DNA of 64,000 bases. Source: an uncultured Verrucomicrobia subdivision 3 bacterium (GTDB taxonomy: Bacteria > Verrucomicrobiota > Verrucomicrobiia > Limisphaerales > UBA11358). The notes under the pieces are model-generated. The model was not told where the DNA came from and did no database searches. It saw nothing but the letters and a program-made list of their open reading frames with translations. How positions within the stretch are numbered: the first letter of the stretch is position 1; every line of letters starts with the position of its first letter. The DNA lies in assembly GCA_903884535.1 (NCBI GenBank), contig CAISEZ010000018.1, positions 9,482 through 73,481 of the forward strand, written 5' to 3'. This document shows positions 1 through 43,327 of the stretch, in pieces. A program made the position numbers and the translations under genes.

Positions 1-1
1 T

Positions 2-607
2 TCGGTTTATGGCTGTCTTTCCTATGGCATCTTTTTGCCCGCAGCTTCTTCCTTCGGCTCACCGGGATATTCCACCCTCGTGGAAAGTTGCACCATCAAG
101 ACGGCAGGAGCAATTGGCATCCAGGCGGATACCGTCACCCACTGCACGGCCGTGGATTGTGGTAACACTGGTATTTCCGGCTCGTCGATTTCGGACAGTC
201 GCGGGGAAGCGGCCGGTATTGGCAGTGTCGGTCTTTCGGCCGTCAATGCTGAAAATTGTTACGGTGCCTGTTCGTCCACGAATCTGGGCTACGGCATATT
301 GACCATTCTGGCCAACAATTGTTCCGGTTATGCTGCCGGCGCAAGCAGCTACGCCATATTGGCGAACTCCACCGCCATTAATTGCTACGGCTACTGCACC
401 GGCACCAACGGCAATGGGATTTACGCCACCACGGCCAGCAATTGCCGGGGCTTTAGCACCAGCGGCAACGCGCTGAATATCATCGGCAGTGCCGTCGGTT
501 GTTATGGCCAGAGCACTTTTGGCACCGGCGTCAAAGCCACCGTGGCCAATGCGTGCGTGGTCGGCGGCGGCACCACCAACATCACCTACAAATACAACAT
601 GCCGTAG
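2..607 (+). CDS. NC(Y)G-repeat secreted beta-helix-like protein, paralog P0 (5' end outside window)
   Basis: The frame is open to the window start. It encodes G/S/T/A/N-rich 18-19 aa repeats, each with xNC(Y/S/R)G. The C-terminus TNITYKYNMP is the same type as paralog 5952..7049. Confidence 0.7.
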   Translation, partial: SVYGCLSYGIFLPAASSFGSPGYSTLVESCTIKTAGAIGIQADTVTHCTAVDCGNTGISGSSISDSRGEAAGIGSVGLSAVNAENCYGACSSTNLGYGILTILANNCSGYAAGASSYAILANSTAINCYGYCTGTNGNGIYATTASNCRGFSTSGNALNIIGSAVGCYGQSTFGTGVKATVANACVVGGGTTNITYKYNMP

Positions 608-649
608 TAGCCGTCCTCGACTCACGAATCATAAATAAACAAAGCCATT

Positions 650-1855
650 ATGAAAAACCAACTCGCCACCCTGTTGATGCTCGCAACCCTAAACTGCCAA
701 CTCTTGCTTGTCCGAGCGCAAGGCGTGCTCACGCCGCCGGGCGCACCGGCACCGATGATGAAATCGCTCGACCAGATTGAGGCGCGCACGGCCATCACCA
801 ATACGAGCAGTCTGGTGACCATTTCGCAGCCAGGTTCATATTACCTGACGCACAACCTCACCGTCAGCAGCGGCGATGCGATTGACATCACCACCAACGA
901 CGTAACGCTGGACTTGAACGGATTTACCATTTTCTCAACCGCCGCCAGCGCCGCCGGCACCGCCATCAATCTCAACAACCCGGCCACCAACTCCGACATC
1001 ACAATTTTCAACGGGCACATCAAGAGCGGCGTGACCACCAATGTTGACGGAGTTTATACCGGTTCCGGTTTTGCCAACGGCATCAGCTATGCGGGCGGCG
1101 CACCGGCCAACGTGCGGGTGAGCGGCATTTCCGTGATGGGGGTTTTGACTCATGGCATTAACCTTTGGCTTGGCGCTTCAACGTCGGCCGAAGCCTGCAC
1201 CGTGTGGACGGCGGGCGGATATGGGGTGGTCGCCACCACCATCAGGGCGTGCCTTGCGATCGCTTGTGGAAACACCGCTATCTGGGGCTATCAGGTGACC
1301 GACAGTCAGGGTCAAAGCGCCAGCGGTTTTGCTGGTGTTAGCGCAGAGGAGGCAAAGAATTGTTATGGTTCGAACGGCACCAGCTTTGGCATCAATTCTT
1401 TCATCGCTCAGAACTGTTACGGCACCAGCGTCAACGGCCAGGGTATAAATGCCGTCACCGCGTTGAACTCTTATGGTTCCGGCGGCAGCCCTGGTGGACT
1501 TTATTGCACCACCGCACAAAATTGCCAAGGCCTAAGCGGCAGCGGCATAGGTCTCAGCGCCACCACGGCGCAGAACTGCTATGGTTCCAGCTACAGCAGT
1601 TATGGCCTTAACGCCAACACGGCGCAGAACTGCTATGGCACCAGCACCACCAGTATTGGTCTCTATGCGAATATGGCGCAAAACTGTTACGGTAGCGGTG
1701 GAACCTATGGCATTAATGCCCCCTTTGTAGCCACAAGCTGCTATGGCTACGGCACCACCAATGCCGGCGTATTGGCGTTTATTGCCAATAGCTGCCATGG
1801 CGGCACCTCCACCGGCACGGCTTTGAACACGACGCATAACGTGAACTCCTACTGA
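650..1855 (+). CDS. NC(Y)G-repeat secreted beta-helix-like protein, paralog P1
   Basis: 401 aa with an ATGAAAAAC start and a signal peptide ending VRA-QG. It has the conserved LTPPGAPAPMMKSLDQIE module, a GSYYLT..NVTLDLNGFTI core, 9 NC(Y)G-type units and the C-terminus HNVNSY. Confidence 0.8.
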   Translation: MKNQLATLLMLATLNCQLLLVRAQGVLTPPGAPAPMMKSLDQIEARTAITNTSSLVTISQPGSYYLTHNLTVSSGDAIDITTNDVTLDLNGFTIFSTAASAAGTAINLNNPATNSDITIFNGHIKSGVTTNVDGVYTGSGFANGISYAGGAPANVRVSGISVMGVLTHGINLWLGASTSAEACTVWTAGGYGVVATTIRACLAIACGNTAIWGYQVTDSQGQSASGFAGVSAEEAKNCYGSNGTSFGINSFIAQNCYGTSVNGQGINAVTALNSYGSGGSPGGLYCTTAQNCQGLSGSGIGLSATTAQNCYGSSYSSYGLNANTAQNCYGTSTTSIGLYANMAQNCYGSGGTYGINAPFVATSCYGYGTTNAGVLAFIANSCHGGTSTGTALNTTHNVNSY

Positions 1856-1900
1856 TGAATTTTTGATTAACAATTTTCGATTTACGGAATCAAACCACCC

Positions 1901-2686
1901 ATGAAAAACAAAACCCTCATCACGGCTGTCTCTACATTCTTCCTTCTACATTCGGCCTTTGCCTTTGAGGGCCGCATTCAAGTCACGCTCACGCGCGGAG
2001 GCCAGCCGGCCAACCTGCTTTACACGGCGGGCACCAATTATTTGCGGGTGGAAAATACCGTCACCAACTGGCCGAACCCGGTGGATTTGCTGGATCGCAG
2101 TTCCGGCGCACTGACTCTACTTTTCCCCAACAACCGCAGCTTCGTGCATTTGCCGCCTGCCGCTCTGACACCCGCACCTGGCGCAATGCCCATGCCGATG
2201 CCACCACCCGCCTTGCCTGCGGGCACCTCGGTCACGCCGCCACCCGGCGCACCGGCGATGCCACAGATGCCCCAAATGCCGCAGATGCCCGCCGCCGGTG
2301 GAATGCCGATGATGCCAATGGAGCAACCGGAACTTAAAGCCACCGGTGAAACCACCAATCTTCTCGGTTATGCTTGCACCGGTTACGAAATCAAGCAGCG
2401 CGGCGAGACAATGGAAGTCTGGGCTACGGATCAGTTGTTACCTTTCCAGCCCTATGTGCAAAACCAGCCGCATCGTTTCGGCCCGCAGATGATCGAGGAA
2501 CAATGGGCGGAACTGGTCAAGGCCAAGAAGCTGTTCCCGTTGCTGGCCACCTTGAAGTTCGACAATGGAATGGAACATTTCCGGTTCGAGGTCAAGGCCG
2601 TCACGCCGCAGACATTCACGGAAAAAGATGCCGCACTGTTTCAACCGCCGCCGGAGTATCTGGAAATCCAGCCGCTGCCGTTTTAA
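1901..2686 (+). CDS. secreted DUF4412-like protein with a Pro/Met-rich linker
   Basis: 261 aa with a signal peptide (FFLLHSAFA-FEG). The pattern FEGRI..T.....N...Y..GTNYLRVE and ELKATGETTNLLGYACTGYEI...EVWAT resembles DUF4412 from memory. There is a PMPMPPP..MPQMPQMPQMP low-complexity segment. Confidence 0.6.
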   Translation: MKNKTLITAVSTFFLLHSAFAFEGRIQVTLTRGGQPANLLYTAGTNYLRVENTVTNWPNPVDLLDRSSGALTLLFPNNRSFVHLPPAALTPAPGAMPMPMPPPALPAGTSVTPPPGAPAMPQMPQMPQMPAAGGMPMMPMEQPELKATGETTNLLGYACTGYEIKQRGETMEVWATDQLLPFQPYVQNQPHRFGPQMIEEQWAELVKAKKLFPLLATLKFDNGMEHFRFEVKAVTPQTFTEKDAALFQPPPEYLEIQPLPF

Positions 2687-2726
2687 CCAATGAAGAATTA
2701 CGAATCAGAATGAAGAAAATAAAACC

Positions 2727-3769
2727 ATGAAAACCAACCACGCCAAACTCATACTCGTCACCGCTGTCACAATTTCCGCTTTCCGCTTTCCGCCTTTTCG
2801 CAAGGCGTCCTCACGCCGCCGGGCGTGCCGGCACCGATGATGAAGTCGCTCTCGCAAATCGAGCCGCGCACACCGATCAACACGTTGCCGGGCGACGGAG
2901 GCTATGATCTTTACTACATCTCGCAATCCGGCTCGTATTATCTGACCACCAACATTGTGGTCGCCAGCGGCACCAATGGGATTGGAGTCGGGGCCAGCGA
3001 CGTGGTGATAGACCTCAACGGGTTCACCCTCTCCGGCACGGCGAGCAGAATTGCGATCCGGTCCACCGCGAATCTGGGCCGGGTGCGGATCTGCAACGGC
3101 CAGCTCACCGGCTGGTCGGGCGGGCTGGATTTTTACGTCAATGGAACCGGGACTAACCTCACCCTCGAAAACGTGCAAATGACGCTGACCAACGGCGGCG
3201 CAGGATTGTTCGCCGGGGTCGGATGCGGCGACGGATTGAGTCTCGCACATTGCACCATTTCCGGCGCAAGCGGGCCGTCCAGCTATGCCGTTTTGGCGGG
3301 CGACCGCTGCACATTCGAAGCCTGCACCCTGTTCGGCTGTAATTATGGAATTGACGCCGGTTCCACTATCACGGTCAAGGACTGCACCATCAAAAACTGT
3401 TCCGGTGGGGAAGGTATTTTTGTGAGCAACACTAGCATCCTCCTCAACAACCTTCTGGACGGATGCAAAATGGGCATGACCTTCCACAACGCCTGCATGG
3501 TTAGTCAAAACACCTGCCAGAATGCCACCGGCAACGGATTTAATATTAGCGGCAACTACAACCGCGTGGAGGATAACGTGTCTATTGGAAATGCCTTTTT
3601 CGGTTTCATTTCCCAAGGGGTGACCACGAACAATCTGGTGATTCGGAACCTGGCACGCGGAAACAGTTCGGGGAATTATGCCCTGAACAGCACCGATGCC
3701 GTCGGCCCCATTATTACCACATCCGGCACCATCACCAATTTGAATCCTTGGGCGAATTTTTCCTATTAA
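2727..3769 (+). pseudogene. paralog P2 (beta-helix C-terminal variant), frameshifted inside the signal-peptide heptamer tract
   Basis: ATG 2727 opens MKTNHAKLILVTAVTISAFRFP, homologous to the P5 leader, but stops at 2838..2840. The mature part (SQGVLTPPGVPAPMMKSLSQIEPRTPI.., to 3769) is in the +2 frame. The offset equals one missing 7-nt unit. Confidence 0.65.
2773..2793 (+). repeat. (TTTCCGC)x3 heptanucleotide tandem repeat
   Basis: Read directly. Three perfect units are followed by CTTTTCG CAAGGC. Confidence 0.9.
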
Positions 3770-3785
3770 CCCAACCCGCAACAGC

Positions 3786-4921
3786 ATGAAAACTAAAACT
3801 CTATTCTACTCCGTCATCGTTTCTGCCTTCTGCCTTCTGCCTTCTACCTTCGGGCAAGGAGTCTTGACGCCGCCGGGCGCGCCGGCGGCGGGGATGAAAT
3901 CACTCGCGCAGATTGAGCCGCGCACGCCGATCTCCGCCGCGCCGTTCACCATCTCGGCGGGCGGCTCGTATTATCTGACGACCAATCTCACCGTCAGTGC
4001 CGGCGATGCCATCACCATTGCCGCCGACAACGTGACGCTGGATTTGAACGGCTTCACCATCCGTTCCACCGCCGCCAGCGCGACGGGCCCGGCATTTTGC
4101 TCAATGGCGGTTTGAGGAACCTCACCCTCGCCAACGGCTTCATCCAAGGTGGCGTGACGAACAACGGCAGCGGCGTTTACAGCGGCGGCGGCTTTGCCAA
4201 CGGCATTTATTTTTCCGGCAATGCGCCGTTGAATGTGCTGGCGTCCCGCCTCTCGATTTCCGGCTGCTCGGTTTACGGCATCTATCTCCTTAATGGCAAT
4301 TCGACCGTGGTGGAAGCCTGCGCGGTGCGGACGGTGGGCGGTTATGGCATCGTTGCTTCCACCATCAAAAGTTGCGCGGCGATGGATTGCGGGAACACTG
4401 CCATCTATGGCGATGAGGTTTCGGATAGTCGCGGGCAATGTTCCGGCAGCAGCTCCGGCCTTTACGCCATCACCGCGCAGAACTGTAACGGCTACAGCGG
4501 CAGCGGCTCCGGCCTTGTCGCCACCACCGCGCAGAACTGTTACGGCCAAAGCACCAGCGGCGACGGCTTGGACACCACCACTGCGCAGAACTGTTATGGC
4601 CAAAGCACCAGCAGCTACGGCCTCTCCATCGGTGGCAACGCGCTGAACTGTTACGGCGTCAGCACCAGCGGCTACGGCCTTTATGCCATCGCCGCACAGA
4701 ACTGTTCCGGCTACAGCAGCGGCAATGGCGATGGCATTTACACCACCACCGCGCAGAACTGTTACGGTTACAGCGGCGGAACTGGCATCGGCCTGTTTGC
4801 TTCCAAGACCGCCAGTGGCTGCTATGGCTACTGTCTTTCCGGCACGGGGCTGTCGGCGTTCATCGCTAATTCCTGCTCCGGCACTTCCTTGAACGTGACG
4901 CATAATCTCAACTCCTACTGA
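3786..4921 (+). pseudogene. paralog P3, split by a 1-nt frameshift near 4092-4096
   Basis: ORFs 3786..4115 and 4097..4921 together reconstitute a full paralog (..STAASATGPA / (I)LLNGGLRNLTLANGFIQGGVTNN..). Sister P5 has GCC ATT TTA where P3 reads GCATTTTG. Confidence 0.7.
3821..3848 (+). repeat. (TTCTGCC)x3 + TTCTACC heptanucleotide tandem repeat
   Basis: Read directly. It encodes FCLLPSA.. of the P3 signal peptide. Confidence 0.9.
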
Positions 4922-4952
4922 TGAATTTATGATTCACCGAATCCAACCACCT

Positions 4953-5894
4953 ATGAAAACCAAAACCTTCCTCACCGCGTTTGTTTCATCCTTCATCCTT
5001 CAGCAATCCGCCTTCGGGCAAGGGGCTTTGACGCCGCCCGGCGCGCCCGTGGCGACAATGAAATCGCTCGACCAAATTTATGCGAAACTGGACGCGCGCA
5101 TTCCCATCACCAACAGTGCCAGCTTGGTGACGATTTCCCAGCCCGGCTCGTATTATTTGACGACCAATGTCACCGTCAGTTCCGGCAATGCCATCACCAT
5201 TGCCGCCGGCAACGTGACGCTGGACTTGAACGGCTTCACCATTGCTTCTACCGCCGCCAGCGCGGCGGGCTATGCCATCTTGATGGGCAGCGTGACGAAT
5301 GTTTCCATTTACAATGGGAACATCAGCAGCGGCGTGACGAACAGCGCCGCCGGCGTGTTTGGCGGCGGCGGCTTCGGCTACGGCATTTATAATTCTGGAT
5401 TTTCCTACAATGTGCGGGTGAAGTCGGTGTCCGTCGCGGGCGCGTTAACTTATGGAATTTATCTCGGCCAGGGCAACTCCACGGTGGTGGAAGCCTGCTC
5501 GGTCAATGTGGCGTCCACTTATGGAATTTATGCCGACAGTGTGTCCGATTCGACGGCGGTGAATTGTGGAAACTGTGGCGTCTTTGCCCACGCGGCGCAC
5601 AATTGCACAGGCTACGGCGTGGGCAGCGGCACCGGGCTGTATGCTAACACCGCCAACAACTGTTTCGGCTACAGTGCCGGGAGCGGTGCCGGGCTGAATG
5701 CGAGCATCGCCAACAACTGTTACGGCTACAGTTCCGGGAACGGCTACGGGCTGTATGCCGGCTCAGTGGCGACGGGCTGTTACGGTTACAGTCTCAACGG
5801 CACGGGGCTGTCTGCCTTCCTTGCCAGTGTCTGCCACGGAGAATCCATCTCCGGCACGGCCCTCATCACGTCGCACAACGTGAACTCGTTCTGA
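4953..5894 (+). CDS. NC(Y)G-repeat secreted protein, paralog P4
   Basis: The ATG at 4953 (MKTKTFLTAF..) is chosen by homology to the other leaders; the ORF opens at 4929. It has the conserved LTPPGAPVATMKSLDQI module, 5 NC-type units and the C-terminus HNVNSF. Confidence 0.8.
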   Translation: MKTKTFLTAFVSSFILQQSAFGQGALTPPGAPVATMKSLDQIYAKLDARIPITNSASLVTISQPGSYYLTTNVTVSSGNAITIAAGNVTLDLNGFTIASTAASAAGYAILMGSVTNVSIYNGNISSGVTNSAAGVFGGGGFGYGIYNSGFSYNVRVKSVSVAGALTYGIYLGQGNSTVVEACSVNVASTYGIYADSVSDSTAVNCGNCGVFAHAAHNCTGYGVGSGTGLYANTANNCFGYSAGSGAGLNASIANNCYGYSSGNGYGLYAGSVATGCYGYSLNGTGLSAFLASVCHGESISGTALITSHNVNSF

Positions 5895-5951
5895 ACCATT
5901 TAGGATTTACGATTGCCGATTTACGATTTGAAAATTAAACCAAGGAAAATT

Positions 5952-7049
5952 ATGAAAACCAACCTTACAAAGCTCACCCTTGTCGTCGCCATGGCGCTTT
6001 CCGCTTTCCGCTTTCCGCTTTCCGCTTTTGCCCAAGGCACGCTCACGCCGCCGGGCGCGCCGGCGGCGGGGATGAAATCGCTGGCGCAAATCGAGCCGCG
6101 CACGCCGATCTCCGCCGCGCCCTTCACCATTACTGTGCCGGGGTCGTATTACCTGACCACGAATCTCACCACCACGGTGAGCAATGCCATAGTGATACTC
6201 ACGAATGGGGTGACGCTGGATTTGAGCGGATTCACGCTGACCTCGACCGTGGCCAACGCGGCCAATGGCGGCACGGCCATTTTATTGGGCAGCGGTCTGA
6301 GTGACATCACGATAGGCAACGGCCACATCCGCAGCGGCGTGACGAACAACGGCGGCGGCGTTTACAGCGGCGGCGGGTTTGCCTACGGAATTAGTTGGAG
6401 TGGCAATCCGCCGCAGAATGTGCTGGCATCCCGCGTCTCGGTGGTTGGCTGCCTGAATCATGGCATTGCTTTGAACAATGGCAATTCAACGGGGGTGGAA
6501 GCCTGCATGGTGCGGACGGTGGGGAGCATTGGCATCATGGCTTCCACCATCAAAAGCAGCTCGGCGGCGGATTGCGGAGGCTCGGCCATCTATGGCGATG
6601 AGGATTCCGATTGTATCGGGCAAAGTTCCGGCGGCGGCTACGGCATTTACGCCTTCACCAGCGCGCAGAGCTGTTACGGCACCAGCGGCAGCAGCTACGG
6701 CCTTTATGCCATGACGGCAGAGAACTGTTACGGCATCAGTAGCACCGGCACCGGTATCCAAGCCCGCTCCGCGGCGAATTGTTACGGCTCCACCGTCAGC
6801 GACTACGGCATTTCCACCTACATCGCGCTAAACTGTTGTGGCAACAGCACCGGCACCGGTCTATACGCCCTTCTATCAGCCAGCGGCTGTTATGGTCAAA
6901 GTGCTCTAGGCACGGGGTTGTATGCCTTAAATGCCAGCTTTTGCACGGGCAACGTCTCTGGCGGCACGGCCATCCGAGCCACCATGGCTACCGGCTGTAG
7001 CGCCTTTATCGGCACCAACATCATCACCTACAAATACAACATGCCGTGA
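5952..7049 (+). CDS. NC(Y)G-repeat secreted protein, paralog P5
   Basis: The ATG at 5952 (MKTNLTKLTLVVAMALSAFRFPLSAFA-QG) is preceded by AAGGA. It has the conserved module, about 7 Cys-containing units and the C-terminus IITYKYNMP. Confidence 0.8.
   Translation: MKTNLTKLTLVVAMALSAFRFPLSAFAQGTLTPPGAPAAGMKSLAQIEPRTPISAAPFTITVPGSYYLTTNLTTTVSNAIVILTNGVTLDLSGFTLTSTVANAANGGTAILLGSGLSDITIGNGHIRSGVTNNGGGVYSGGGFAYGISWSGNPPQNVLASRVSVVGCLNHGIALNNGNSTGVEACMVRTVGSIGIMASTIKSSSAADCGGSAIYGDEDSDCIGQSSGGGYGIYAFTSAQSCYGTSGSSYGLYAMTAENCYGISSTGTGIQARSAANCYGSTVSDYGISTYIALNCCGNSTGTGLYALLSASGCYGQSALGTGLYALNASFCTGNVSGGTAIRATMATGCSAFIGTNIITYKYNMP
5998..6025 (+). repeat. (TTTCCGC)x4 heptanucleotide tandem repeat
   Basis: Read directly. 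It encodes LSAFRFPLSA of the P5 signal peptide. Confidence 0.9.
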
Positions 7050-7081
7050 ATCAACAAATGCAGAATGAAGAAACCAAAACT

Positions 7082-8170
7082 ATGAAAACTCAACTTAATC
7101 TCGCCGTCCTTGCGCTGCTGCTGGCAACCGGCAACCGGCAACTTTCAACCTTGCACGCGCAGGGCGTGCTCACGCCGCCCGGCGCGCCGGCTGCGGGGAT
7201 GAAAACGCTGGCGCAAATCGAACCACGCACACCTATCTCCGCCGCGCCGTTCACCATTTCGACGGCTGGCTCGTATTATTTGACGACCAACCTCACCGTA
7301 AGTGTGGGCAATGCCATCACCGTCAGCGCGAACAACGTGACGCTGGACTTGAATGGCTTCACCCTGGCCTCGACGGAAACGCCGGCGGGAAGCAGCATTG
7401 GCATTTCCTTGAACTCGGTGACGAACACCACCATCGCGCATGGCTGCATCAGCAGCGGCGTGACCAATAGCGGCGGTATTTATGGTGGCAGCGGCTTTGG
7501 TTCCGGCATTTATTATTTAGGCTTGGCGCCGGTCAACGTGCGCGTCTCGGGCGTTTCGGTTTCGGGCTGCCGAGTGAACGGTATGTTTCTCGGCACCAGT
7601 TCGGTGGTAGAATTCTGCACAGTCAACACCATGGGAAATTTTGGCATCGTTGCCGAAACTGTTTCGGACTCGCTGGCACAAAATTGCGGGAACACTGCGG
7701 TGTATGCCTACGGCAATGCCAATAACTGTTTTGGCTACGCTTCCGGCAGCGCCAACGGCGTGTATGCCAACGCCGCAAATAACTGCTATGGCACCAGTTC
7801 CGGCGGCAGCGGCTTGGCGGCCAGCATTGCCAACAACTGCTATGGCTACACGGCCAGCAATAATAACGGCTTGTCGGCCACCGTCGCCAACAATTGTTTT
7901 GGTCAAAGTGCCAATGGCAACGGCATTTCGGCCACGGCGGCTACCGGCTGTTATGGGCAATCGGATGCTGGCCTCTACAGTGGCGTGCTGGCCAGCACGG
8001 CCAATAACTGCGTTGGCTACAGCTACGGCGGCGGCTATGGACTCTATGCCTATTACATCGCCAATGGCTGTTATGGCTACAGTGCCAGCGGCACGGGTCT
8101 CAATGCGTTGATTGCCAGTGTCTGTCATGGCTCGACGCTCTCGACCAGTCATAGCGTCAATTCCTTTTGA
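7082..8170 (+). CDS. NC(Y)G-repeat secreted protein, paralog P6
   Basis: The ATG at 7082 opens MKTQLNLAVLALLLATGNRQLSTLHA-QG. It has the conserved module, 8 NC-type units and the C-terminus HSVNSF. Confidence 0.8.
   Translation: MKTQLNLAVLALLLATGNRQLSTLHAQGVLTPPGAPAAGMKTLAQIEPRTPISAAPFTISTAGSYYLTTNLTVSVGNAITVSANNVTLDLNGFTLASTETPAGSSIGISLNSVTNTTIAHGCISSGVTNSGGIYGGSGFGSGIYYLGLAPVNVRVSGVSVSGCRVNGMFLGTSSVVEFCTVNTMGNFGIVAETVSDSLAQNCGNTAVYAYGNANNCFGYASGSANGVYANAANNCYGTSSGGSGLAASIANNCYGYTASNNNGLSATVANNCFGQSANGNGISATAATGCYGQSDAGLYSGVLASTANNCVGYSYGGGYGLYAYYIANGCYGYSASGTGLNALIASVCHGSTLSTSHSVNSF
7123..7150 (+). repeat. GGCAACC GGCAACC GGCAACT TTCAACC heptad-periodic tract
   Basis: Read directly, inside the P6 signal-peptide coding region. 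Confidence 0.75.
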
Positions 8171-8238: not shown

Positions 8239-9666
8239 ATGAAAACAAAAAACTTCATCCTCGGCTTCGTTTCTGCCTTCTGCCTTCTGCCTTCTGCATT
8301 CACTCACGCCGCCACGACCATCAGCGCCGTGAACCGTTATGCCTATGCCGCGAATCTCGGCTGGATGGACTGGCGCGGCGACACCAACAACGGTGCCGTC
8401 ATTAATGCGACCTATTGTTCCGGCTCAATCTATGCCGCCAACGTCGGCTGGATCAGTTTAGGCGCCGGCACGCCCACCAATGGCGTGCAATACCAGAACC
8501 TTTCCGCCAATGACTACGGCGTGAACGTGGATGCCTTCGGCAACCTGCGCGGCTTTGCCTACGGCGCAAATATCGGCTGGATCAATTTTGAGACCAACGG
8601 CGCGGCCGCCGTGGATTTCGGCTCCGGCAACCTGACTGGTTATGCCTACGGCGTGAACGTCGGCTGGATCAGCTTGAGCAACGCCGTGGCCTATGTGCAA
8701 ACCGCGCCGCTGGCTCCGCCCAACGACCTCTGCGCCGGGGCCATTGCGCTCACCAACGGTGCCAGCTATGCCATGAGCACGGTGACCGCCACCACCAATG
8801 GCGATCCGACGTTGCCATGCCTCACCCTCTTTGGCAAAGGCGTCTGGTTCACTTACACGCCGTTGCTCACCGGCAATGTCACCATTAGCACTTGCGGCAG
8901 CAGTTTTGACACCGCGATGGCGGTTTATACCGGCACTTGCGGCGCCATGACCGCAGTTGCTTGCGATGATGATAATGGTCCTTCCTGTTCCGGCGTCAAC
9001 GCCAGCGTGACCTTCTCCGGCACGGCGGGTGTAACTTACTCCATTCTGGCGGGCGGCTATAATTCGGCCAACGGCAACTTGAGCATCGTCGCCACTTCGC
9101 CTTCCAACGACCAGTGCGCCGGTGCCTTGGCCCTCGCGGACGGCGTGCCGTTCACGATGGGCACGACCAACGCCACTTCCACCGGCGATCCATCGCCAGC
9201 CTGCGTGGGCAGTTTTGGCAAGGGCGTCTGGTTCACCTACACGGCCCCGGCCAGCGGCGACGTGTATATCAGCACCTGTGGCAGCAGTTATGACACCGCG
9301 ATGGGAGTTTACACCGGCGGTTGCGGCGCGTTGAGCCAAATTGCCTGCAATGATGACAGCGGACCGAATTGCGCGAGTTTGCAGGCCAGCGTGCATCTGG
9401 TCGCCACCGGCGGGACTACCTACTACATCCTTGCGGGAGGTTATGGCAGCAGCAGCGGCCTTCTAACCGTCGAGGCCTATCTTGTGCCGGCGCTCAATGT
9501 CATTGGCTCGGCCGGCACCCTGACAGTCACCTGGCCCGGCAATGGCACCTTGCAGTCCGCCACGAATCTGCTCCCGGTAATCAACTGGACCGATTTAACG
9601 AATGGCGGCGGCCTCTGGTCCGAACCCATGACCAACCCGGCGAAATTCTTCCGCATTAAAAAATAG
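8239..9666 (+). CDS. secreted protein with four GW(I/M) repeats, two Cys-rich ~135-aa modules and an FFR C-terminal module
   Basis: 475 aa with signal peptide SAFCLLPSAFTHA. Repeats are ANLGWMDW, ANVGWISL, ANIGWINF and VNVGWISL. Two duplicated modules read ND.CAGA..L....T.AT..GDP...C...FGKGVWFTYT..G.V.ISTCGSS.DTAM.VYTG.CGA....AC.DD.GP.C. Confidence 0.8.
   Translation: MKTKNFILGFVSAFCLLPSAFTHAATTISAVNRYAYAANLGWMDWRGDTNNGAVINATYCSGSIYAANVGWISLGAGTPTNGVQYQNLSANDYGVNVDAFGNLRGFAYGANIGWINFETNGAAAVDFGSGNLTGYAYGVNVGWISLSNAVAYVQTAPLAPPNDLCAGAIALTNGASYAMSTVTATTNGDPTLPCLTLFGKGVWFTYTPLLTGNVTISTCGSSFDTAMAVYTGTCGAMTAVACDDDNGPSCSGVNASVTFSGTAGVTYSILAGGYNSANGNLSIVATSPSNDQCAGALALADGVPFTMGTTNATSTGDPSPACVGSFGKGVWFTYTAPASGDVYISTCGSSYDTAMGVYTGGCGALSQIACNDDSGPNCASLQASVHLVATGGTTYYILAGGYGSSSGLLTVEAYLVPALNVIGSAGTLTVTWPGNGTLQSATNLLPVINWTDLTNGGGLWSEPMTNPAKFFRIKK
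8271..8298 (+). repeat. (TTCTGCC)x3 + TTCTGCA heptanucleotide tandem repeat
   Basis: Read directly. It is the same unit and the same left flank (CGTTTCTGCC) as 3821..3848. Confidence 0.9.
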
Positions 9667-9776: not shown

Positions 9777-10922
9777 ATGCTGCGGCACATGATTCATGAT
9801 GTTCAAGCCATCGCGGCGGAAGTGATTCGGAAAACCGGCAAGGACAAGCCGGCGGACGCGGCGTTGCGCGAGGTGCTCAAGCAGATCAAAGATCTCGCGC
9901 CCTTCGACGCAACGGAAATCGCCAAGACCGTTTTTCTGTATTACCGTTGGCACGTTTGGTTGCGCGAAGAACGCGGCGTGGAAAACAAGATGCGTTTTGC
10001 CATCCGCTTGAACCAACGCTTTCAGGCGAACAACGCCAGTGTGCCCATCGCCGAGCTACGCGCCAATGCCGTGCCCGTGTGGACAGCGTCGGAAATGGAC
10101 GTCACCGATGAATGGTTGCTCACCTTGCAACGCGAACCGAAATTGTGGCTGCGCGCCAAACGCGGCACGGCGGACTCGCTGGCACGGACGCTGTTCGCGG
10201 CGGATGTGAGTCCGCTGCTGCCGGAGGCAATTTTGTATCGTGGCGAGGAAGATTTGTTTAAGACGCCGGAATTTCACGCGGGCGAATTTGAAATCCAAGA
10301 CATCGCATCGCAACTGGTGGGCATGCTCTGCGCGCCGCAGCCGGGCGAGACGTGGTGGGACACGTGCGCCGGCGAAGGCGGTAAGACGCTCCACCTGTCC
10401 GACCTGATGCAAAACAAAGGTATGCTCTGGGCCAGCGACCGCGCGGAATGGCGGCTGACCAAGCTCAAGCGCCGGGCCGGGCGGGCGAAAGTTTTCAATT
10501 ATCGGTCGGCGCACTGGGACGGTGGCGCGAAGTTACCGACAAAAACAAAGTTTGACGGCGTGCTCGTGGATGCGCCGTGCAGTGGCATCGGCACGTGGCA
10601 GCGCAATCCGCAGGCGCGCTGGACCACCGAGCCGAACGATGTGCGCGAGCTTTCTGCAATTCAAAAAAAACTTTTGGCCAATGTTGCGCCGAGTTTGAAG
10701 CCAGGTGGTAAATTGATTTATTCCGTGTGCACGCTGACGCGCGCTGAATCCACGGAAGTCGTGGACGATTTCAATTCAAAGTTCGCGGCAGAATTTGAGC
10801 CGATGGAACTGGCGGCGACCGCTTCTGGCGGTCAGCAGACTGACGCCACAAAAACGATCTGGCCGCAAGATTTGGGCGGGAACGGAATGTTTATCGCGGG
10901 TTGGCGGCGGAAGAAAATTTAG
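9777..10922 (+). CDS. RsmB/NOP2/Sun-family RNA (cytosine-C5) methyltransferase
   Basis: 381 aa. Motifs WWDTCAGEGGKT, DAPCSGIGTWQRNPQARW and YSVCTL are typical of the family. Confidence 0.8.
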   Translation: MLRHMIHDVQAIAAEVIRKTGKDKPADAALREVLKQIKDLAPFDATEIAKTVFLYYRWHVWLREERGVENKMRFAIRLNQRFQANNASVPIAELRANAVPVWTASEMDVTDEWLLTLQREPKLWLRAKRGTADSLARTLFAADVSPLLPEAILYRGEEDLFKTPEFHAGEFEIQDIASQLVGMLCAPQPGETWWDTCAGEGGKTLHLSDLMQNKGMLWASDRAEWRLTKLKRRAGRAKVFNYRSAHWDGGAKLPTKTKFDGVLVDAPCSGIGTWQRNPQARWTTEPNDVRELSAIQKKLLANVAPSLKPGGKLIYSVCTLTRAESTEVVDDFNSKFAAEFEPMELAATASGGQQTDATKTIWPQDLGGNGMFIAGWRRKKI

Positions 10923-11728
10923 CGCGCCGATTCCAAAATCTTGGCGAGGATTTTTTGGATGTCCTCGTTGTGTTGTTGCGATGCTTTGCCAAAGGCTTGA
11001 ACAATGTCGAGCAGGAACCCGGCATTGGCGGAGTTGAATTCGTAGAGCACAGTTTCCTTGGACTTCGCTTTCGCGGGCGGGCGCGGCGTTCCATCCGGCA
11101 ACAAAACGTCCGTCATGGGGATGCAAACGTAAACCATCGCCTGATAACCGACCGCGCGCTGCTTTTGCTTGAGCTGAATTTGCACCGAGCCGTGCGGCGT
11201 GGTTTTGGTGAATTGCGGCAACCGCTGCACCACACTTTGAAATCCATCTGCCGACGAATTGGTCGAAACCTCGACTTGCACGGGCTGGCTTTCTTCAAAT
11301 TCGGCCGGCCGAATTTTTTTTAATGCCTCGATTTCATGAAGCAGGTCGTTGGTCGAAATCAGTCCCAGCCGGACCGCTTCAAAAATGATCTTCGAAAGTT
11401 CGTGACCGTATTTGGTTTCGCCTTTGCGTGTGAACTTGATTTCGGGAACATCCGTGATGTCCTTCGCGTCGGGCGTGTCGTAACCGATCTGCCATTCGAG
11501 GTAATGCTTTCTACCGAGTGAAACTTTTGACGGCGCAACCGGAATGCCGAAACCGTCCACAGTTTTTTCCTTCACGCGCACCTTGCCGGTCACGTCGGTG
11601 AGCGGCAGACGAACGCGCACGGCGTTGGTCAGCGTTTCAACGCGGACGAGTTTGTATTCCGCATCGGCGCAAAACGCACGAAACGTCAGGCAAAACAAGG
11701 CGAACAGAATGACGAAATTCTTTCGCAT
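10919..11728 (-). CDS. hypothetical secreted protein
   Basis: The internal ATG at 11728 gives MRKNFVILFALFCLTFRAFC-ADAE, a signal peptide. I recognise no family. Confidence 0.55.
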   Translation of the reverse strand: MRKNFVILFALFCLTFRAFCADAEYKLVRVETLTNAVRVRLPLTDVTGKVRVKEKTVDGFGIPVAPSKVSLGRKHYLEWQIGYDTPDAKDITDVPEIKFTRKGETKYGHELSKIIFEAVRLGLISTNDLLHEIEALKKIRPAEFEESQPVQVEVSTNSSADGFQSVVQRLPQFTKTTPHGSVQIQLKQKQRAVGYQAMVYVCIPMTDVLLPDGTPRPPAKAKSKETVLYEFNSANAGFLLDIVQAFGKASQQHNEDIQKILAKILESAR

Positions 11729-23190: not shown

Positions 23191-25763
23191 GCCGCCTCCT
23201 TCGTGACAAGTTGGGAGTTAAAAGGTGAAATTTCAGAACAACTCCGATTAGGACCCTCAATGCTCAAATCCCCAACCATCAACTTTCTTCCCAGCCAGGC
23301 AGTCGTTCCGCAGGCGAACACCACAATGGTCGCCGAACTTAGCGGCATTAAGATGGCGCAGACGATCGGCGACAAAATACCCGCGGCGGCGATGCTCACG
23401 CCGACCAAATTATAAAGCGCCGAGATGACAAAGCCGGCGCGCACCACGCGTGCCGCGCTGCGGGAAAAATTCAAAACTTGGGTCAGCCGGGGCAGTTCCG
23501 CCGCGTCGAGAATCACGTCGCTGGCCGGGGAAAAAATCCCGACCTGCTCGACGACCGCCACGCCGACATCTGCCTGTTTCAACGCGCCCGCGTCATTGAG
23601 GCCGTCGCCGACCATCATCACCCTGCGGCCACACGCTTGGAGTTCGCGCACGAAATTTAATTTATCCGCCGGGCTTTGGTTGAATTTCAGAATCGCGCGA
23701 CCGCCAAATAATTTAGCAAATCGCTCCGCCTCGCGCTCGTTGTCACCGCTCAACAGCGCCAGTTCAAATCGGTCGCCGAGCTCCGTCAGAAGCTGCGCGA
23801 CTTCGGGCCGCAGCGAGTTTTCCAGCCGGAATTCGCCGCGCCAAACGCCATCAATGGCCACGCCCACCGCACTGCCGGATTTAGGCTGGCCTGAAATAAT
23901 GTCGGGGCAAGCCGGCACGCCGCAATATTCCAGCCAGGCCTGCGAGCCGAGCAAAATCTTGTGTCCCGCAACTTCGCCTTCCACGCCGCAGCCCGGCGTT
24001 TCCTTGAAACCGGCAACCGGCAAAACCTTAAATGAAAGTGCTTTCGAAATGCGGACGGAATTCGGATGCGTCGAATGCCGCGCCAGCGATCCAATCCATG
24101 AATTTTCCTCCGCGCTCAAGTCGCCACGTTTTGCTTCTGCATTCTGCATTCTTCCTTCTGCCCCCAAAAACTCCACGCCGCGCGCGTCGGCGCAGGTAAT
24201 GGTTCCGGTTTTGTCCAAGACAATTGCGTCCACCGCTGCCATGCGCTCAATGACCAGCGCATTTTTCAAAAAGATTTTCATCCGCGCCAAGATGCGTTGC
24301 GCGGTGCCGTGCGTCAGGGGTGCCGCCAGCGCGAGCGCGCACGGGCAGGCTACAATCAAAACCGACGTGAAGGCTTTCAGCGCTTTTGCCAAGTCGCTAA
24401 AAAACCAAAACACCGCCGCCGCCACCGCAATCCCGACGACCATTTTCGTGAAACGGCGGCTATAACGGTTGGTGAGCGAGTCGAGGTCGTCGTCGGTGTT
24501 TTTGCGGAACGCCTCGTTGTTCCAAAGCGTTGCCAGGTAGCTTTGCGCGACCGGCTTGGTGGTTTCCACTTCGATGGCGCCACCCACCTGACGACCGCCG
24601 GCGAACAGATGCTTGCCGATTTCGCAGGCGACTGGCTCCGCTTCGCCGGTGACAAAACTGTAATCTAGAAAAGCTTCGCCACTGACAAGTTTTGCGTCCG
24701 CCGGCAACAGTTCACCGTTCCGTAAAATCAAATGGTCGCCCGTTTGCAGTTGTGAAAGCGCGACGCTGGTTTCGCCGGCGAAACTTTTCCGGACGACCGA
24801 TAACGGGAAAAAGCCTTTGTAATCGCGGTCAAACGTGAGCCGGTCGTAAGTTCGTTTTTGGAATAAACGGCCGCACAGCAGAAAAAATATCAAGCCGCAC
24901 AGCGAATCGCAAAAACCGGGGCCGCGCTGGGAAACCACTTCAAACGCGCTGGTCAGATAAATCGCCGTCAAACCGATCACAATGGGCACTTCCATCGTCA
25001 GCGCACGCTGGCGAAAGCTCAACCGCGCCGCGCGCCAGAAATCCGACGCGCTGAACGTCACCACCGGCAGTGCGAACGCGAGGCTCAGCCAGCCGGCGAT
25101 GGCTTTGAACCACGGGCCATTGAACGAATCGAGCCCGAAATAAAACGGCAGCGACATCAGCATGATGTTGCCAAATGCAAAGCCGGCGAGGCCGATTTGC
25201 AGCCAAGCTTTTTTCCGCCACGGCGACGGCTTGGCCTTTTCCGTTTCGCCAAAGGTCAGTTCTGGTTCGTAACCGATGGACGCCAGCAGCGCGACCAGTT
25301 CGCTGAATTTTATTTTGCTCGGCGCAAAGGTGATGGCGGCTTCGCGCCGGGAAAAATTCACCTGCGAATGGCCGACGCCGGGATGCAGCTTGAACAGATT
25401 TTCCAGCAACCACACGCACGCGATGCAATGAATGGCCGGCAGATGTAGCGTGACCTTGGCCCGCGTGGAGTCCGCGTAATCGAACAATTTTTCCGACACC
25501 GCCGGGTCGTCGAGAAACGCCCATTTTGAGGCGGCAGCTGCGGCGCGAAAACGGGTGCCGGGAGCAGTGTTTAGTTCATAAAATTGTTCCAGCCCATTTT
25601 CGCGCAGCAAACTGAAAACGGTCTGGCAGCCGAAACAGCAGAAACTTCTTTCATCCAGCGTGAAGGCTCGGTCCGGACATGGCTCGCCACAATGAAAGCA
25701 GCCACCCGCCGCGCGCGGGGCGAGGTTGGGCGAGGTCGGCGTGGCTATGAATTGCTCCGGCAT
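23187..25763 (-). CDS. ccoI: copper-translocating P1B-type ATPase CcoI/FixI
   Basis: 858 aa. It has CPC (VACPCALALA), DKTGT and GDGLND, plus N-terminal Cys pairs. Confidence 0.9.
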   Translation of the reverse strand: MPEQFIATPTSPNLAPRAAGGCFHCGEPCPDRAFTLDERSFCCFGCQTVFSLLRENGLEQFYELNTAPGTRFRAAAAASKWAFLDDPAVSEKLFDYADSTRAKVTLHLPAIHCIACVWLLENLFKLHPGVGHSQVNFSRREAAITFAPSKIKFSELVALLASIGYEPELTFGETEKAKPSPWRKKAWLQIGLAGFAFGNIMLMSLPFYFGLDSFNGPWFKAIAGWLSLAFALPVVTFSASDFWRAARLSFRQRALTMEVPIVIGLTAIYLTSAFEVVSQRGPGFCDSLCGLIFFLLCGRLFQKRTYDRLTFDRDYKGFFPLSVVRKSFAGETSVALSQLQTGDHLILRNGELLPADAKLVSGEAFLDYSFVTGEAEPVACEIGKHLFAGGRQVGGAIEVETTKPVAQSYLATLWNNEAFRKNTDDDLDSLTNRYSRRFTKMVVGIAVAAAVFWFFSDLAKALKAFTSVLIVACPCALALAAPLTHGTAQRILARMKIFLKNALVIERMAAVDAIVLDKTGTITCADARGVEFLGAEGRMQNAEAKRGDLSAEENSWIGSLARHSTHPNSVRISKALSFKVLPVAGFKETPGCGVEGEVAGHKILLGSQAWLEYCGVPACPDIISGQPKSGSAVGVAIDGVWRGEFRLENSLRPEVAQLLTELGDRFELALLSGDNEREAERFAKLFGGRAILKFNQSPADKLNFVRELQACGRRVMMVGDGLNDAGALKQADVGVAVVEQVGIFSPASDVILDAAELPRLTQVLNFSRSAARVVRAGFVISALYNLVGVSIAAAGILSPIVCAILMPLSSATIVVFACGTTAWLGRKLMVGDLSIEGPNRSCSEISPFNSQLVTKEAA
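24135..24162 (+). repeat. TTCTGCA TTCTGCA TTCTTCC TTCTGCC heptamer tract inside ccoI
   Basis: Read directly on the + strand. On the coding (-) strand it gives ..GAEGRMQNAEAK... Confidence 0.85.
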
Positions 25764-28886: not shown

Positions 28887-30311
28887 TTAATGCGCCAGCC
28901 ATGACACGCCAAGCTTCAAAAGCTTTTGCACAGCGGCATCGGACTTCGCCTCGGCATAAATTCGCAGGACCGGCTCGGTGCCGGAACCGCGCAGCATCAA
29001 CCACGCCGAATCGGCGGCGATGAATTTCACCCCGTCGCGCGCATCCACTTTTACCAGCGGCGACTGCAGAAGTTTTGTTGGTGGATTCCGTTTAAGCGAT
29101 TCCATGAGCGCAGTGCGCTTTTCCACCGGATACGGCGCGTCAAACCGCGCGTAGCGATGCGGACCAAAATACTTCTCCAGGTTTGCCCAGAGCTGATTCA
29201 CTGAGATTTTTTCCATCGCCAGCATTTCGAGCAGGAACAATCCGGCCGCCAAACCGTCGCGCTCGGGAATGTGATTCGCAAAGCCAACCGAACCGCTTTC
29301 TTCCGCGCCGAATAGCGCGCCGGTTTTCATCAATTCCGGCGCGATAAAGCGGAAGCCGATGCCGACTTCCGTGAGCGGCAGGTTCCACGCTGCGCACATT
29401 TTGTCCACCATCGCCGTGGTGTTGAACGTCTTCGTCACCGTGCCGCGACCGCCGCGATTGCGCACGAGATGATGCAGCAGCAACGCGATGACCTGCTGGT
29501 TGGTCAGCGGTTCACCGCGCCCATCCATCGCGCCAATGCGGTCGGCATCACCGTCGGTGACGAGGCAGATGTCGTGCGGATTGTTCCGCAACTGCGCGCC
29601 GCCGAGGGCGTAATTTTTCGGCAACGGCTCCGGACTAATCCCCCCGAATAAAATATCGTGCGCGCCATTGAGCGTGGTGACGGTGCAATTCGTTTTGGCC
29701 AGCAGCGTTTCAAACACGCCCGCGCCGACGCCGAACAGTGCGTCATGCGCCACGCGCAATTTGGCTTTGGCAATGAGCTTGAAATCCACGAGTTGCTTGA
29801 TGGCGGCGAAGTGCGCCGGGCGGACATCTTGAACGGCAATTTCTAATTTTGACTTATTATTTTTGAAGGGCGGCGGATTTCGGTCCAAAAAACTTTCCAC
29901 GGCCGCGCACACCTCGGCGCTGCTGCTGCCGCCAAAATGCGACTTGAGTTTGAAGCCGTTGAAGATCGGTGGATTGTGACTGGCGGTGATCATTACGCCG
30001 CCGACGGCTTGGAGATTTTTCACCGCGAAGGAAACACTTGGCGTGGGCGTGGGCTCCGGCGTGAGGATGACTTGAAAATCATTCCCGACAAACACCTCGG
30101 CGGTGATTTGCGCGAAGCGGTCGGACAAAAACCGGCGGTCGTAGCCGACGACCACTTTTGGCTCGCGCCTGAAAATTTCTGATTTTGAATTTCCGATTTC
30201 CGATTTCCAGAAATCCGCCGTGGCCTGCGCGACGCGGGCGACGTTGGCAAACGTAAAATCTTCCGCGATGACCGCGCGCCAGCCGTCCGTGCCGAATTTG
30301 ATGGGTGCCAC
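28887..30311 (-). CDS. phosphoglucomutase/phosphomannomutase family protein
   Basis: 474 aa. It has the active-site motif TASHNPP and the Mg site DGDADR. Confidence 0.85.
   Translation of the reverse strand: MAPIKFGTDGWRAVIAEDFTFANVARVAQATADFWKSEIGNSKSEIFRREPKVVVGYDRRFLSDRFAQITAEVFVGNDFQVILTPEPTPTPSVSFAVKNLQAVGGVMITASHNPPIFNGFKLKSHFGGSSSAEVCAAVESFLDRNPPPFKNNKSKLEIAVQDVRPAHFAAIKQLVDFKLIAKAKLRVAHDALFGVGAGVFETLLAKTNCTVTTLNGAHDILFGGISPEPLPKNYALGGAQLRNNPHDICLVTDGDADRIGAMDGRGEPLTNQQVIALLLHHLVRNRGGRGTVTKTFNTTAMVDKMCAAWNLPLTEVGIGFRFIAPELMKTGALFGAEESGSVGFANHIPERDGLAAGLFLLEMLAMEKISVNQLWANLEKYFGPHRYARFDAPYPVEKRTALMESLKRNPPTKLLQSPLVKVDARDGVKFIAADSAWLMLRGSGTEPVLRIYAEAKSDAAVQKLLKLGVSWLAH
30189..30209 (+). 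repeat. ATTTCCG ATTTCCG ATTTCCA heptamer tract inside the PGM-family gene
   Basis: Read directly. On the coding (-) strand it gives WKSEIGNSKSEIF. Confidence 0.85.
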
Positions 30312-43253: not shown

Positions 43254-43305
43254 AAAATGCAAAATTAAAAACCGGCGGCGGCGCTTTCCGCGATTTTGCA
43301 TTTTT
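43253..43305. promoter_or_regulatory. 13-bp perfect inverted repeat between grpE and dnaJ
   Basis: AAAAATGCAAAAT (43253..43265) and ATTTTGCATTTTT (43293..43305) are separated by a 27-nt GC-rich spacer. Confidence 0.55.
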
Positions 43306-43321
43306 AATTTTTAATTTTTAA
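43301..43321 (+). repeat. (TTTTTAA)x3 heptamer repeat immediately upstream of dnaJ
   Basis: Read directly. It ends 6 nt before ATG 43328. Confidence 0.85.
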
Positions 43322-43327
43322 TTTTTC

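Follow-up and report, generated by a model that had tools for sequence, protein, structure and literature searches.

The DNA analyzed here, a 64,000-nt stretch of contig CAISEZ010000018.1 from an uncultured Verrucomicrobia subdivision 3 bacterium (hereafter, the window), opens with an array of seven paralogous genes, P0–P6, which all lie on the forward (+) strand and are predicted to encode secreted β-helix proteins. Perfect 7-nt tandem repeats occupy the predicted signal-peptide coding region of P2–P6 and of a gene for a 475-amino-acid (aa) protein directly after the array, and at both P2 and P3 natural alleles that differ by exactly one repeat unit place the gene in or out of frame. An earlier note, made from the letters of the sequence, had described the seven paralogs, their coordinates and the gaps of only 16–68 nt between array genes; open reading frame (ORF) listing and translation recover all of this, with 35–55% amino-acid identity of the paralogs to P1, and a family profile run against the 64-kb window matches only the P0–P6 ORFs.

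The array begins with the C-terminal part of P0 (..607, +), which is cut by the window start, contains NC(Y)G coils and has ITYKYNMP at its end. Full-length P0, found in L001 and L004, is 355–367 aa long and has a leader without a heptamer tract; a real difference between the 367- and 355-aa forms was rejected, as the DNA is identical and only the calling of the start codon differs. P1 (650..1855, +) is intact (401 aa, eight xCxG units), its leader also has no heptamer tract, and its protein has the same sequence as P0004, found on 27 contigs. Inside the array follows a gene for a predicted secreted DUF4412 protein (1901..2686, +; 261 aa; Pfam PF14371, E = 5.6e-12). P2 (2727..3769, +) joins the N-terminal module of the family to a NosD/PbH1-type β-helix C-terminus and is out of frame in the window, and P3 (3786..4921, +; nine xCxG units) is split there into two ORFs, 3786..4115 and 4097..4921, by a 1-bp deletion at 4088. 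P4 (4953..5894, +; 313 aa, five xCxG units), P5 (5952..7049, +; 365 aa, ending in ITYKYNMP) and P6 (7082..8170, +; 362 aa, the protein modeled below) are intact. The gene for the 475-aa AANLGW-repeat protein (8239..9666, +), also predicted to be secreted, comes directly after the array and is a conserved neighbor of the family.

Each of the six tracts begins 32–46 nt after the ATG and is 18–34 nt long, corresponding to 2.6–4.9 units. P2 carries (TTTCCGC)×3 (2773..2793, +), for which three units are out of frame and four in frame, and P3 carries (TTCTGCC)×3 followed by a degenerate TTCTACC (3821..3851, +), for which a natural two-unit allele is out of frame. The signal-peptide tracts of the remaining genes are (TTCATCC)×2.6 in P4 (4985..5002, +), (CGCTTTC)×4.9 in P5 (5995..6028, +), which is the longest in the window and in frame, (GGCAACC)×2.9 in P6 (7123..7142, +) and (TTCTGCC)×4.4 in the 475-aa gene (8271..8301, +). 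Orthologs of the 475-aa gene have tracts at the same position, built from (TTCAGCC)×4.3 in L022 and (TTCATCC)×4.4 in L037. The DUF4412 leader of the window holds a degenerate 14-nt (2 × 7) repeat at 1931–1959, where the L013 ortholog shows a perfect (TTCTGCC)×4.4.

The preference for this period and this place extends to relatives. Among perfect repeats of at least three copies in the window and 74 related loci (1.2 Mb), 32 have period 7, compared with 3, 6, 0, 2 and 1 for periods 5, 6, 8, 9 and 10, respectively. Fifteen of these 32 tracts lie in leaders of family, DUF4412 or AANLGW genes, directly before the predicted A-x-A↓QG site; ~47% of the period-7 tracts are thus packed into ~1% of the sequence, all at one gene position. 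At least 2.5 heptamer copies are present in 19 of 96 family N-termini, with each of periods 5, 6, 8, 9 and 10 reaching at most one, and a 7-aa periodicity is detected in 31 of 194 homolog leaders. The units vary between genomes and include CTCAACC, AGCCTTC, TTCAGCC, TCTGTCC, TCTGCAC and GCCTTCA, among others. Conservation of the position but not of the unit sequence is the pattern expected if it is the repeat as such, and not an encoded peptide motif, that is being maintained, presumably by selection.

Two further kinds of repeat were seen in the window. A second class of A/T-rich tracts of ~7-nt period (AATGAAG, ATTTACG, ATTTCCG and ATTTTTA), at 2689–2717, 5898–5929, 30189–30208 and 43300–43326, lies immediately 5′ of the start codons of four genes, namely P2, P5, one that is phosphoglucomutase-like (− strand) and one that is DnaJ-like; comparable AAATCN tracts precede genes in L045, L080 and L082, and these may be 5′-untranslated-region or promoter repeats. 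An imperfect (TTCTGCA)×3.9 tract at 24135–24161 lies in a long minus-strand ORF with a P-type-ATPase-like DKTGT motif; with a length of 27 nt it stays in frame and is no obvious switch.

Copy-number alleles were compared on metagenome-assembled contigs that carry the same locus and are 99.7–100% identical to the window. In the window, P2 changes frame exactly at its (TTTCCGC)×3 tract. We predicted that one added TTTCCGC would restore the frame and yield a 349-aa protein, and a protein of exactly this sequence (P0135) was then found on four contigs. Two contigs from different assemblies, L084 and L085, indeed have (TTTCCGC)×4 in P2 and elsewhere depart from the window by two single-nucleotide polymorphisms (SNPs) and a 1-bp (A) indel at 4088. 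P3 provides a second case, with cluster products of 378, 342, 341 and 109 aa. The intact 378-aa allele is present in L002, L005, L006 and L008, whereas L083 has (TTCTGCC)×2 in place of the three units of the window, an exact 7-nt deletion of 3821–3827 after which the frame of the ATG stops after 24 codons. This two-unit DNA is that of the 342-aa form, which was found on four contigs representing at least four samples; the 341-aa form is on a fifth contig, on which it lies 10 nt nearer P2 than the intact allele does, a displacement that fits the same 7-nt loss combined with a 3-nt (one-Cys) deletion. In total, the two-unit P3 allele, with or without the extra 3-nt deletion, is represented on five contigs from at least five samples. 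In other lineages, two N-terminally short cluster members, P0531 and P0543, were considered as frameshifted forms and rejected, as both are cut by contig ends.

Altering the six tract genes in silico by one unit in either direction gives products of 23–148 aa in place of full lengths of 313–475 aa, and altering them by three units keeps the frame; the natural in-frame (ON) and out-of-frame (OFF) alleles of P2 and P3 agree with this prediction. The sample series holds at least four combinations of (P2, P3) states, or phasotypes, namely OFF/OFF (1-bp), OFF/ON, OFF/OFF (tract) and ON/ON, on contigs that otherwise differ by only 1–3 SNPs in 3–10 kb. Some contigs end at or near tracts, which provides an indirect hint of switching within populations.

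We therefore favor, with a probability of roughly two in three, a model in which the locus is an array of Sec-exported β-helix proteins toggled gene by gene through a slipped-strand heptamer switch of the Opa/NeuO kind. In this model, mispairing would occur within the late hydrophobic or pre-cleavage part of the signal peptide, 32–46 nt after the ATG, and would act independently on each gene, including that of the neighboring AANLGW binding protein. Gain or loss of one 7-nt unit would shift the frame and truncate the product to 23–148 aa, and a change of three units would leave the frame intact. From such unit-wise switching of individual genes it follows that several phasotypes would be mixed in one population, and that the subset of paralogs exported would differ from one phasotype to the next. 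Switching would be frequent and reversible, and the proteins would be exported, cleaved, and either displayed on the cell surface or released from it, where they could serve in binding or surface variation, for example in adhesion or in evasion of phages or grazers.

Several observations weigh against this model. First, the P3 gene of the window is disrupted by loss of the single A at 4088, outside any repeat, and in L081, from another Verrucomicrobiota metagenome assembly, a family member at ~1960–1975 has TAA in place of the Gln codon at its A-Q-G site, making it a plain nonsense pseudogene; simple decay thus also happens. Second, copy-number differences were observed at two of the six tracts, with P4, P5, P6 and the 475-aa gene invariant in the available contigs, and tract polymorphism was not reproduced in a second lineage; for the CTCAACC lineage, a gapped-pattern scan of JGI metagenomes returned a single contig with the common four-unit allele. 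Third, period-7 repeats are over-represented outside leaders too, including in intergenic DNA, and a mutational heptamer bias could therefore contribute without selection. Finally, the tracts are short (2.6–4.9 units), so switching rates may be modest.

The earlier note had also likened the family to surface-adhesin or antigenic-variation loci, on the grounds that it is multi-copy, C-terminally hypervariable and partly inactivated. Part of this comparison is strengthened, because the ‘inactivated’ P2 and P3 genes turn out to be switchable or polymorphic and leader heptamers change copy number in nature, which lends strong support to the reading of a variable locus. The high nucleotide identity reported among the copies is in fact only 63–78%, with no exact common word longer than 35 nt, indicating that the paralogs are old; they show no trace of recent gene conversion. 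Gene conversion or cassette recombination among paralogs was rejected on these grounds, and antigenic variation of the recombination type is not seen.

The proteins themselves have the architecture that the earlier note described. All paralogs share an MK(T/N) leader, a QG.LTPPGAP..MK.L.QIE.RT.I module and a GSYYLT.N.T...VTLDL(N/S)GFT core. Six of the seven, all except P2, then carry 5–9 NC(Y)G units (consensus A-x-x-A-x-N-C-Y-G-x-S-x-x-G-x-G-L-x) with a Cys-to-Cys spacing of mostly 18–20 residues, and terminate in HN(V/L)NS(Y/F) or ITYKYNMP. The P2 C-terminus, singled out as a different β-helix-like domain, exceeds the Pfam NosD threshold (26.1 bits versus a cut-off of 23.6) and scores near a pectate-lyase-like Pfam family. 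An AlphaFold2 model of P6, built from an 82-sequence alignment (pLDDT 90.6, pTM 0.84), is all-β and forms a continuous β-solenoid over residues ~48–359, as had been proposed. Residues 1–~20 are the signal peptide, residues 20–45 (QG.LTPPGAP) form a low-confidence linker, and residues 43–46, within MKTLAQIE, form a short helix preceding the first strand, which we read as a probable N-terminal cap. In the C-terminal part of the model, each 18–20-residue unit makes one coil of a 7-residue and a 4-residue strand, with the N-C dipeptide of every coil at the turn between them. Judging from strand assignment and spacing, this geometry is what an Asn ladder with stacked Cys residues would be expected to produce. 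The predicted order is thus signal peptide, flexible QG.LTPPGAP linker, cap helix, conserved wide β-helix and a variable count of narrow NC coils. The N-terminal half is strongly conserved and includes near-invariant acidic residues (D89, E47 and E177).

Sequence searches place the family in no characterized group, as anticipated. No Pfam or NCBIfam model reaches threshold for the NC(Y)G proteins, sequence-profile searches of the Protein Data Bank (PDB) return no match for them, and searches with the DUF4412 and 475-aa proteins against PDB sequences gave nothing useful. For the Beta_helix family PF13229 the best score is that of P4 (14.6 bits, E = 0.026, versus a cut-off of 25.9), and the remaining NC(Y)G proteins are not matched; precomputed PF13229 matches exist for a minority of homologs. 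The suggested kinship with GLUG repeats (PF07581) found no match at E ≤ 1 among nine proteins tested. Resemblance of the N-module to tail-fiber or tailspike necks is likewise not supported: no PHROGs family is matched (0 families), and the module is modeled as the low-confidence linker and a predicted cap helix, neither of them similar to a phage neck. Foldseek searches with the P6 model return generic right-handed β-helices with TM-scores of only 0.3–0.47, headed by phage tailspikes, the AlgE4/AlgE6 epimerases and NosD-like giant-virus proteins, all at probability 1.0, together with the RbmB and K1 lyases, and the fold is probably of the right-handed β-helix type, matched generically only. 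Neither the Pfam results nor the P6 model contain a β-barrel translocator or other recognizable anchor.

These fold relationships bear on the alternative that the array simply encodes an expanded set of secreted, polysaccharide-active β-helix enzymes diversified by substrate, in which tract differences are incidental and non-regulatory. Depolymerases, epimerases and lyases dominate the top fold matches, the P2 scores lean toward NosD and pectate lyases, longer contigs have a GH3 gene upstream, and the N-terminal half is strongly conserved, with the near-invariant acidic residues named above. Nevertheless, we consider this explanation unlikely. No enzyme family is matched by Pfam, NCBIfam or PDB sequence search, the structural similarities are low in TM-score, and a purely enzymatic account leaves unexplained why one tract position is conserved in three unrelated families, across orders and with different units. 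Moreover, an enzymatic function would be compatible with phase variation.

More broadly, the family is large. A profile search of a set of 5.8 billion proteins identified more than 5,000 family proteins among 8,000 scored candidates, and clustering at 50% identity leaves 14,617 clusters matched at E ≤ 1e-3, 1,584 of them even at E ≤ 1e-30. Among the matches listed, all source-named proteins are called ‘hypothetical protein’, and one cluster mate is named by NCBI as a right-handed parallel β-helix repeat-containing protein. Searching with the N-module alone for other architectures returned short fragments only. The 74 related loci, obtained by scanning one genome per species, are nearly all from Verrucomicrobiota metagenome-assembled genomes (MAGs), including Limisphaerales/Pedosphaera, Chthoniobacterales, Opitutaceae and Kiritimatiellia, and hold 173 family ORFs at 1–9 copies per locus, in keeping with the multi-copy secreted family that the earlier note described. 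Thus, no housekeeping family is matched, a regular solenoid is predicted, and relatives carry multiple copies, all of which sits well with the original description. The window itself is 100% identical to European Nucleotide Archive (ENA) metagenome scaffolds.

A family gene is adjoined on the same strand by a 475-aa (AANLGW) homolog in 46 of the 74 loci and by a DUF4412 protein in 37, and the family is therefore part of a conserved three-component neighborhood. The 475-aa protein has an N-terminal AANLGW-repeat domain, two galactose-binding/collagen-binding-like β-sandwiches and a C-terminal β-sandwich; modeled at pLDDT 76, it has its best match in the tandem collagen-binding domains of ColG, and in homologs the AANLGW domain is combined with GBD_T9SS_assoc, TSP3_bac, He_PIG, CARDB, TIG or PPC domains. 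The 475-aa protein looks like a modular binding protein. Both the large unnamed family, seemingly confined to Verrucomicrobiota-type genomes (nearly all of the 74 loci), and its three-gene neighborhood with DUF4412 and AANLGW proteins appear to be new. A wider proposal, which we advance tentatively and would not yet back over its negation, is that in the mostly free-living Verrucomicrobiota heptanucleotide tracts within Sec signal peptides form a phylum-wide phasome that stochastically gates export of this three-part surface module, and that natural populations carry combinatorial phasotypes, presumably to hedge their bets when phages, grazers or substrates change.

A second alternative holds that the family is decaying, with P2 and P3 as pseudogenes and the heptamers as neutral microsatellites arising from a lineage-specific slippage bias. 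It draws on the non-repeat deletion in P3 of the window, the nonsense codon in L081, the many 95–140-aa N-terminal fragments in databases and the heptamer tracts of intergenic DNA. We regard it as improbable because intact P2 and P3 alleles coexist with the broken ones in the same set of samples, exactly one unit apart, because 89 of 96 family N-termini of relatives are in frame with the leader, and because so large a share of tracts (~47% in ~1% of the sequence) is concentrated at the same gene position. As a separate observation, four N-terminal fragments of 100–130 aa (P0147, P0169, P0182 and P0200) lie on contigs of 9–386 kb, and their shortness is thus not due to contig ends; they may be frameshifted genes like the 109-aa P3 fragment of the window.

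Errors of assembly or sequencing are a highly improbable source of the differences in tract length. All these differences come from metagenome assemblies, and some contigs end at or near tracts (the first base of L008 corresponds to 2774, that of L005 to 2678), but each allele is found on at least four contigs, from different samples and in two assembly styles (scaffold-type and k141), and the differences are exact 7-nt units with identical flanks. Moreover, at 18–34 nt the tracts fall well within a k of 141, the value that the k141 contig names imply, and presumably within the read length. Finally, an origin as a prophage-derived tail-fiber/tailspike cluster, suggested by the generic β-helix likeness to tailspikes, is scarcely credible given the absence of any PHROG match, called neighbors without phage genes, a Sec-type leader on every copy and a chromosomal neighborhood conserved across Verrucomicrobiota orders.

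Further observations concern the surroundings of the array. Upstream of the window start, longer contigs (L001, 5444–7741) show P0 preceded by two genes for T2SSE/PilB-PilT-type ATPases and by two small ORFs of 157 and 70 aa, for neither of which a homolog turned up close to family genes in the 74 other loci. On contigs of sample ERZ27313607 (L002 16703–16844 and L006 9399–9540), P6 matches the window through ...VTLDL (7351) and then continues into the unrelated TGTCACCGAGCGGATCAAAACCGGCCAGGGATGAGCGATTCAAAACCGGCC..., giving an altered product of 118 aa (P0137) that occurs on five contigs. The tail that follows the equivalent of 7351 in P0137 has no match in the rest of the window or in the fetched loci, and this divergence could reflect an insertion element in some strains or a contig join. 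Downstream, L005 is near-identical to the window as far as 9892 and then shows ~40 substitutions and four small indels in 310 nt (9893–10202), the N-terminal part of an RsmB-F-type methyltransferase gene (9777..10922); this stretch, which adjoins the array, has the appearance of DNA recombined in from a diverged strain. A restriction-endonuclease-like gene (10919–11728, −; PF09522, RE_R_Pab1) comes directly after the methyltransferase gene. Transfer RNA and Rfam scans of the window returned no match.

There are several implications. First, a family of more than 14,000 clusters with neither name nor function has a frame-critical 7-nt repeat in its predicted export signal, with ON and OFF alleles in natural populations. 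Second, if switching is confirmed, it would explain many frameshifted genes in Verrucomicrobial MAGs, would single out the three-gene module as one that probably does much to determine the cell surface in this phylum, and would provide a handle on phage–host or surface-attachment dynamics, with tract lengths readable from metagenomic reads. Finally, annotation calls for caution, as pipelines call such genes from internal starts or as fragments.

Phase variation by simple sequence repeats (SSRs) is textbook knowledge in Neisseria, Haemophilus, Campylobacter and Helicobacter. To our knowledge, it is hardly documented in environmental phyla, contingency loci having been described almost only in host-adapted pathogens, and full-text literature searches turned up no paper that connects Verrucomicrobia to SSR phase variation. 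The closest mechanistic precedent is neuO, the polysialate O-acetyltransferase gene of the E. coli K1 prophage CUS-3, in which a heptanucleotide repeat (the poly-ψ variable-number tandem repeat) in the 5′ coding region slips by single units and is in frame only at multiples of three copies, giving one ON frame (PMC3046976). By contrast, the tracts of the array are 2.6–4.9 units long, lie inside signal peptides, are spread over many paralogs of one secreted family as well as over two neighboring families, and belong to an uncultured Verrucomicrobial lineage rather than a host-associated pathogen. In Neisseria, CTCTT repeats in the leader-peptide coding region of opa genes switch their expression. 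Like Opa and the OipA/Hop proteins of H. pylori, for which CT repeats in the 5′ region of oipA are described as controlling expression (PMC10564699), the array would combine multi-copy exported proteins, one signal-peptide SSR per gene and combinatorial expression. The repeat unit differs, however, at 7 nt in the array compared with 5 in Opa and 2 in Hop, and the tracts of the array are much shorter. Moreover, those proteins are outer-membrane β-barrels of host-adapted pathogens, whereas the array proteins are predicted to be soluble-type β-helices without a barrel.

With respect to fold, the predicted solenoid, short N-terminal helix and Asn at one turn recall the right-handed parallel β-helix superfamily (PF13229, NosD PF05048, tailspikes and AlgE). 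Coils of the pectate-lyase type have roughly 22–25 residues, whereas the NC(Y)G coils have 18–20 with one Cys each, and the six NC(Y)G proteins reach no Pfam or NCBIfam threshold and are assigned to no catalytic family. β-Helical adhesins, including autotransporter passengers such as pertactin and the chlamydial Pmps, are also multi-copy, secreted and built from short repeats, and some are phase-variable; the array proteins, in contrast, end in a β-helix cap (HNVNSY or ITYKYNMP) rather than a C-terminal translocator barrel. The STRR repeats of cyanobacteria represent a comparable lineage-wide excess of 7-nt tandem repeats, which are mostly intergenic, whereas about half of the period-7 tracts in the window and the related loci sit at frame-critical sites of genes for exported proteins. 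Both the protein fold and the switching principle are thus of a known kind, and what appears to be new is that signal peptides across this phylum make use of 7-nt repeats, with ON and OFF alleles in nature.

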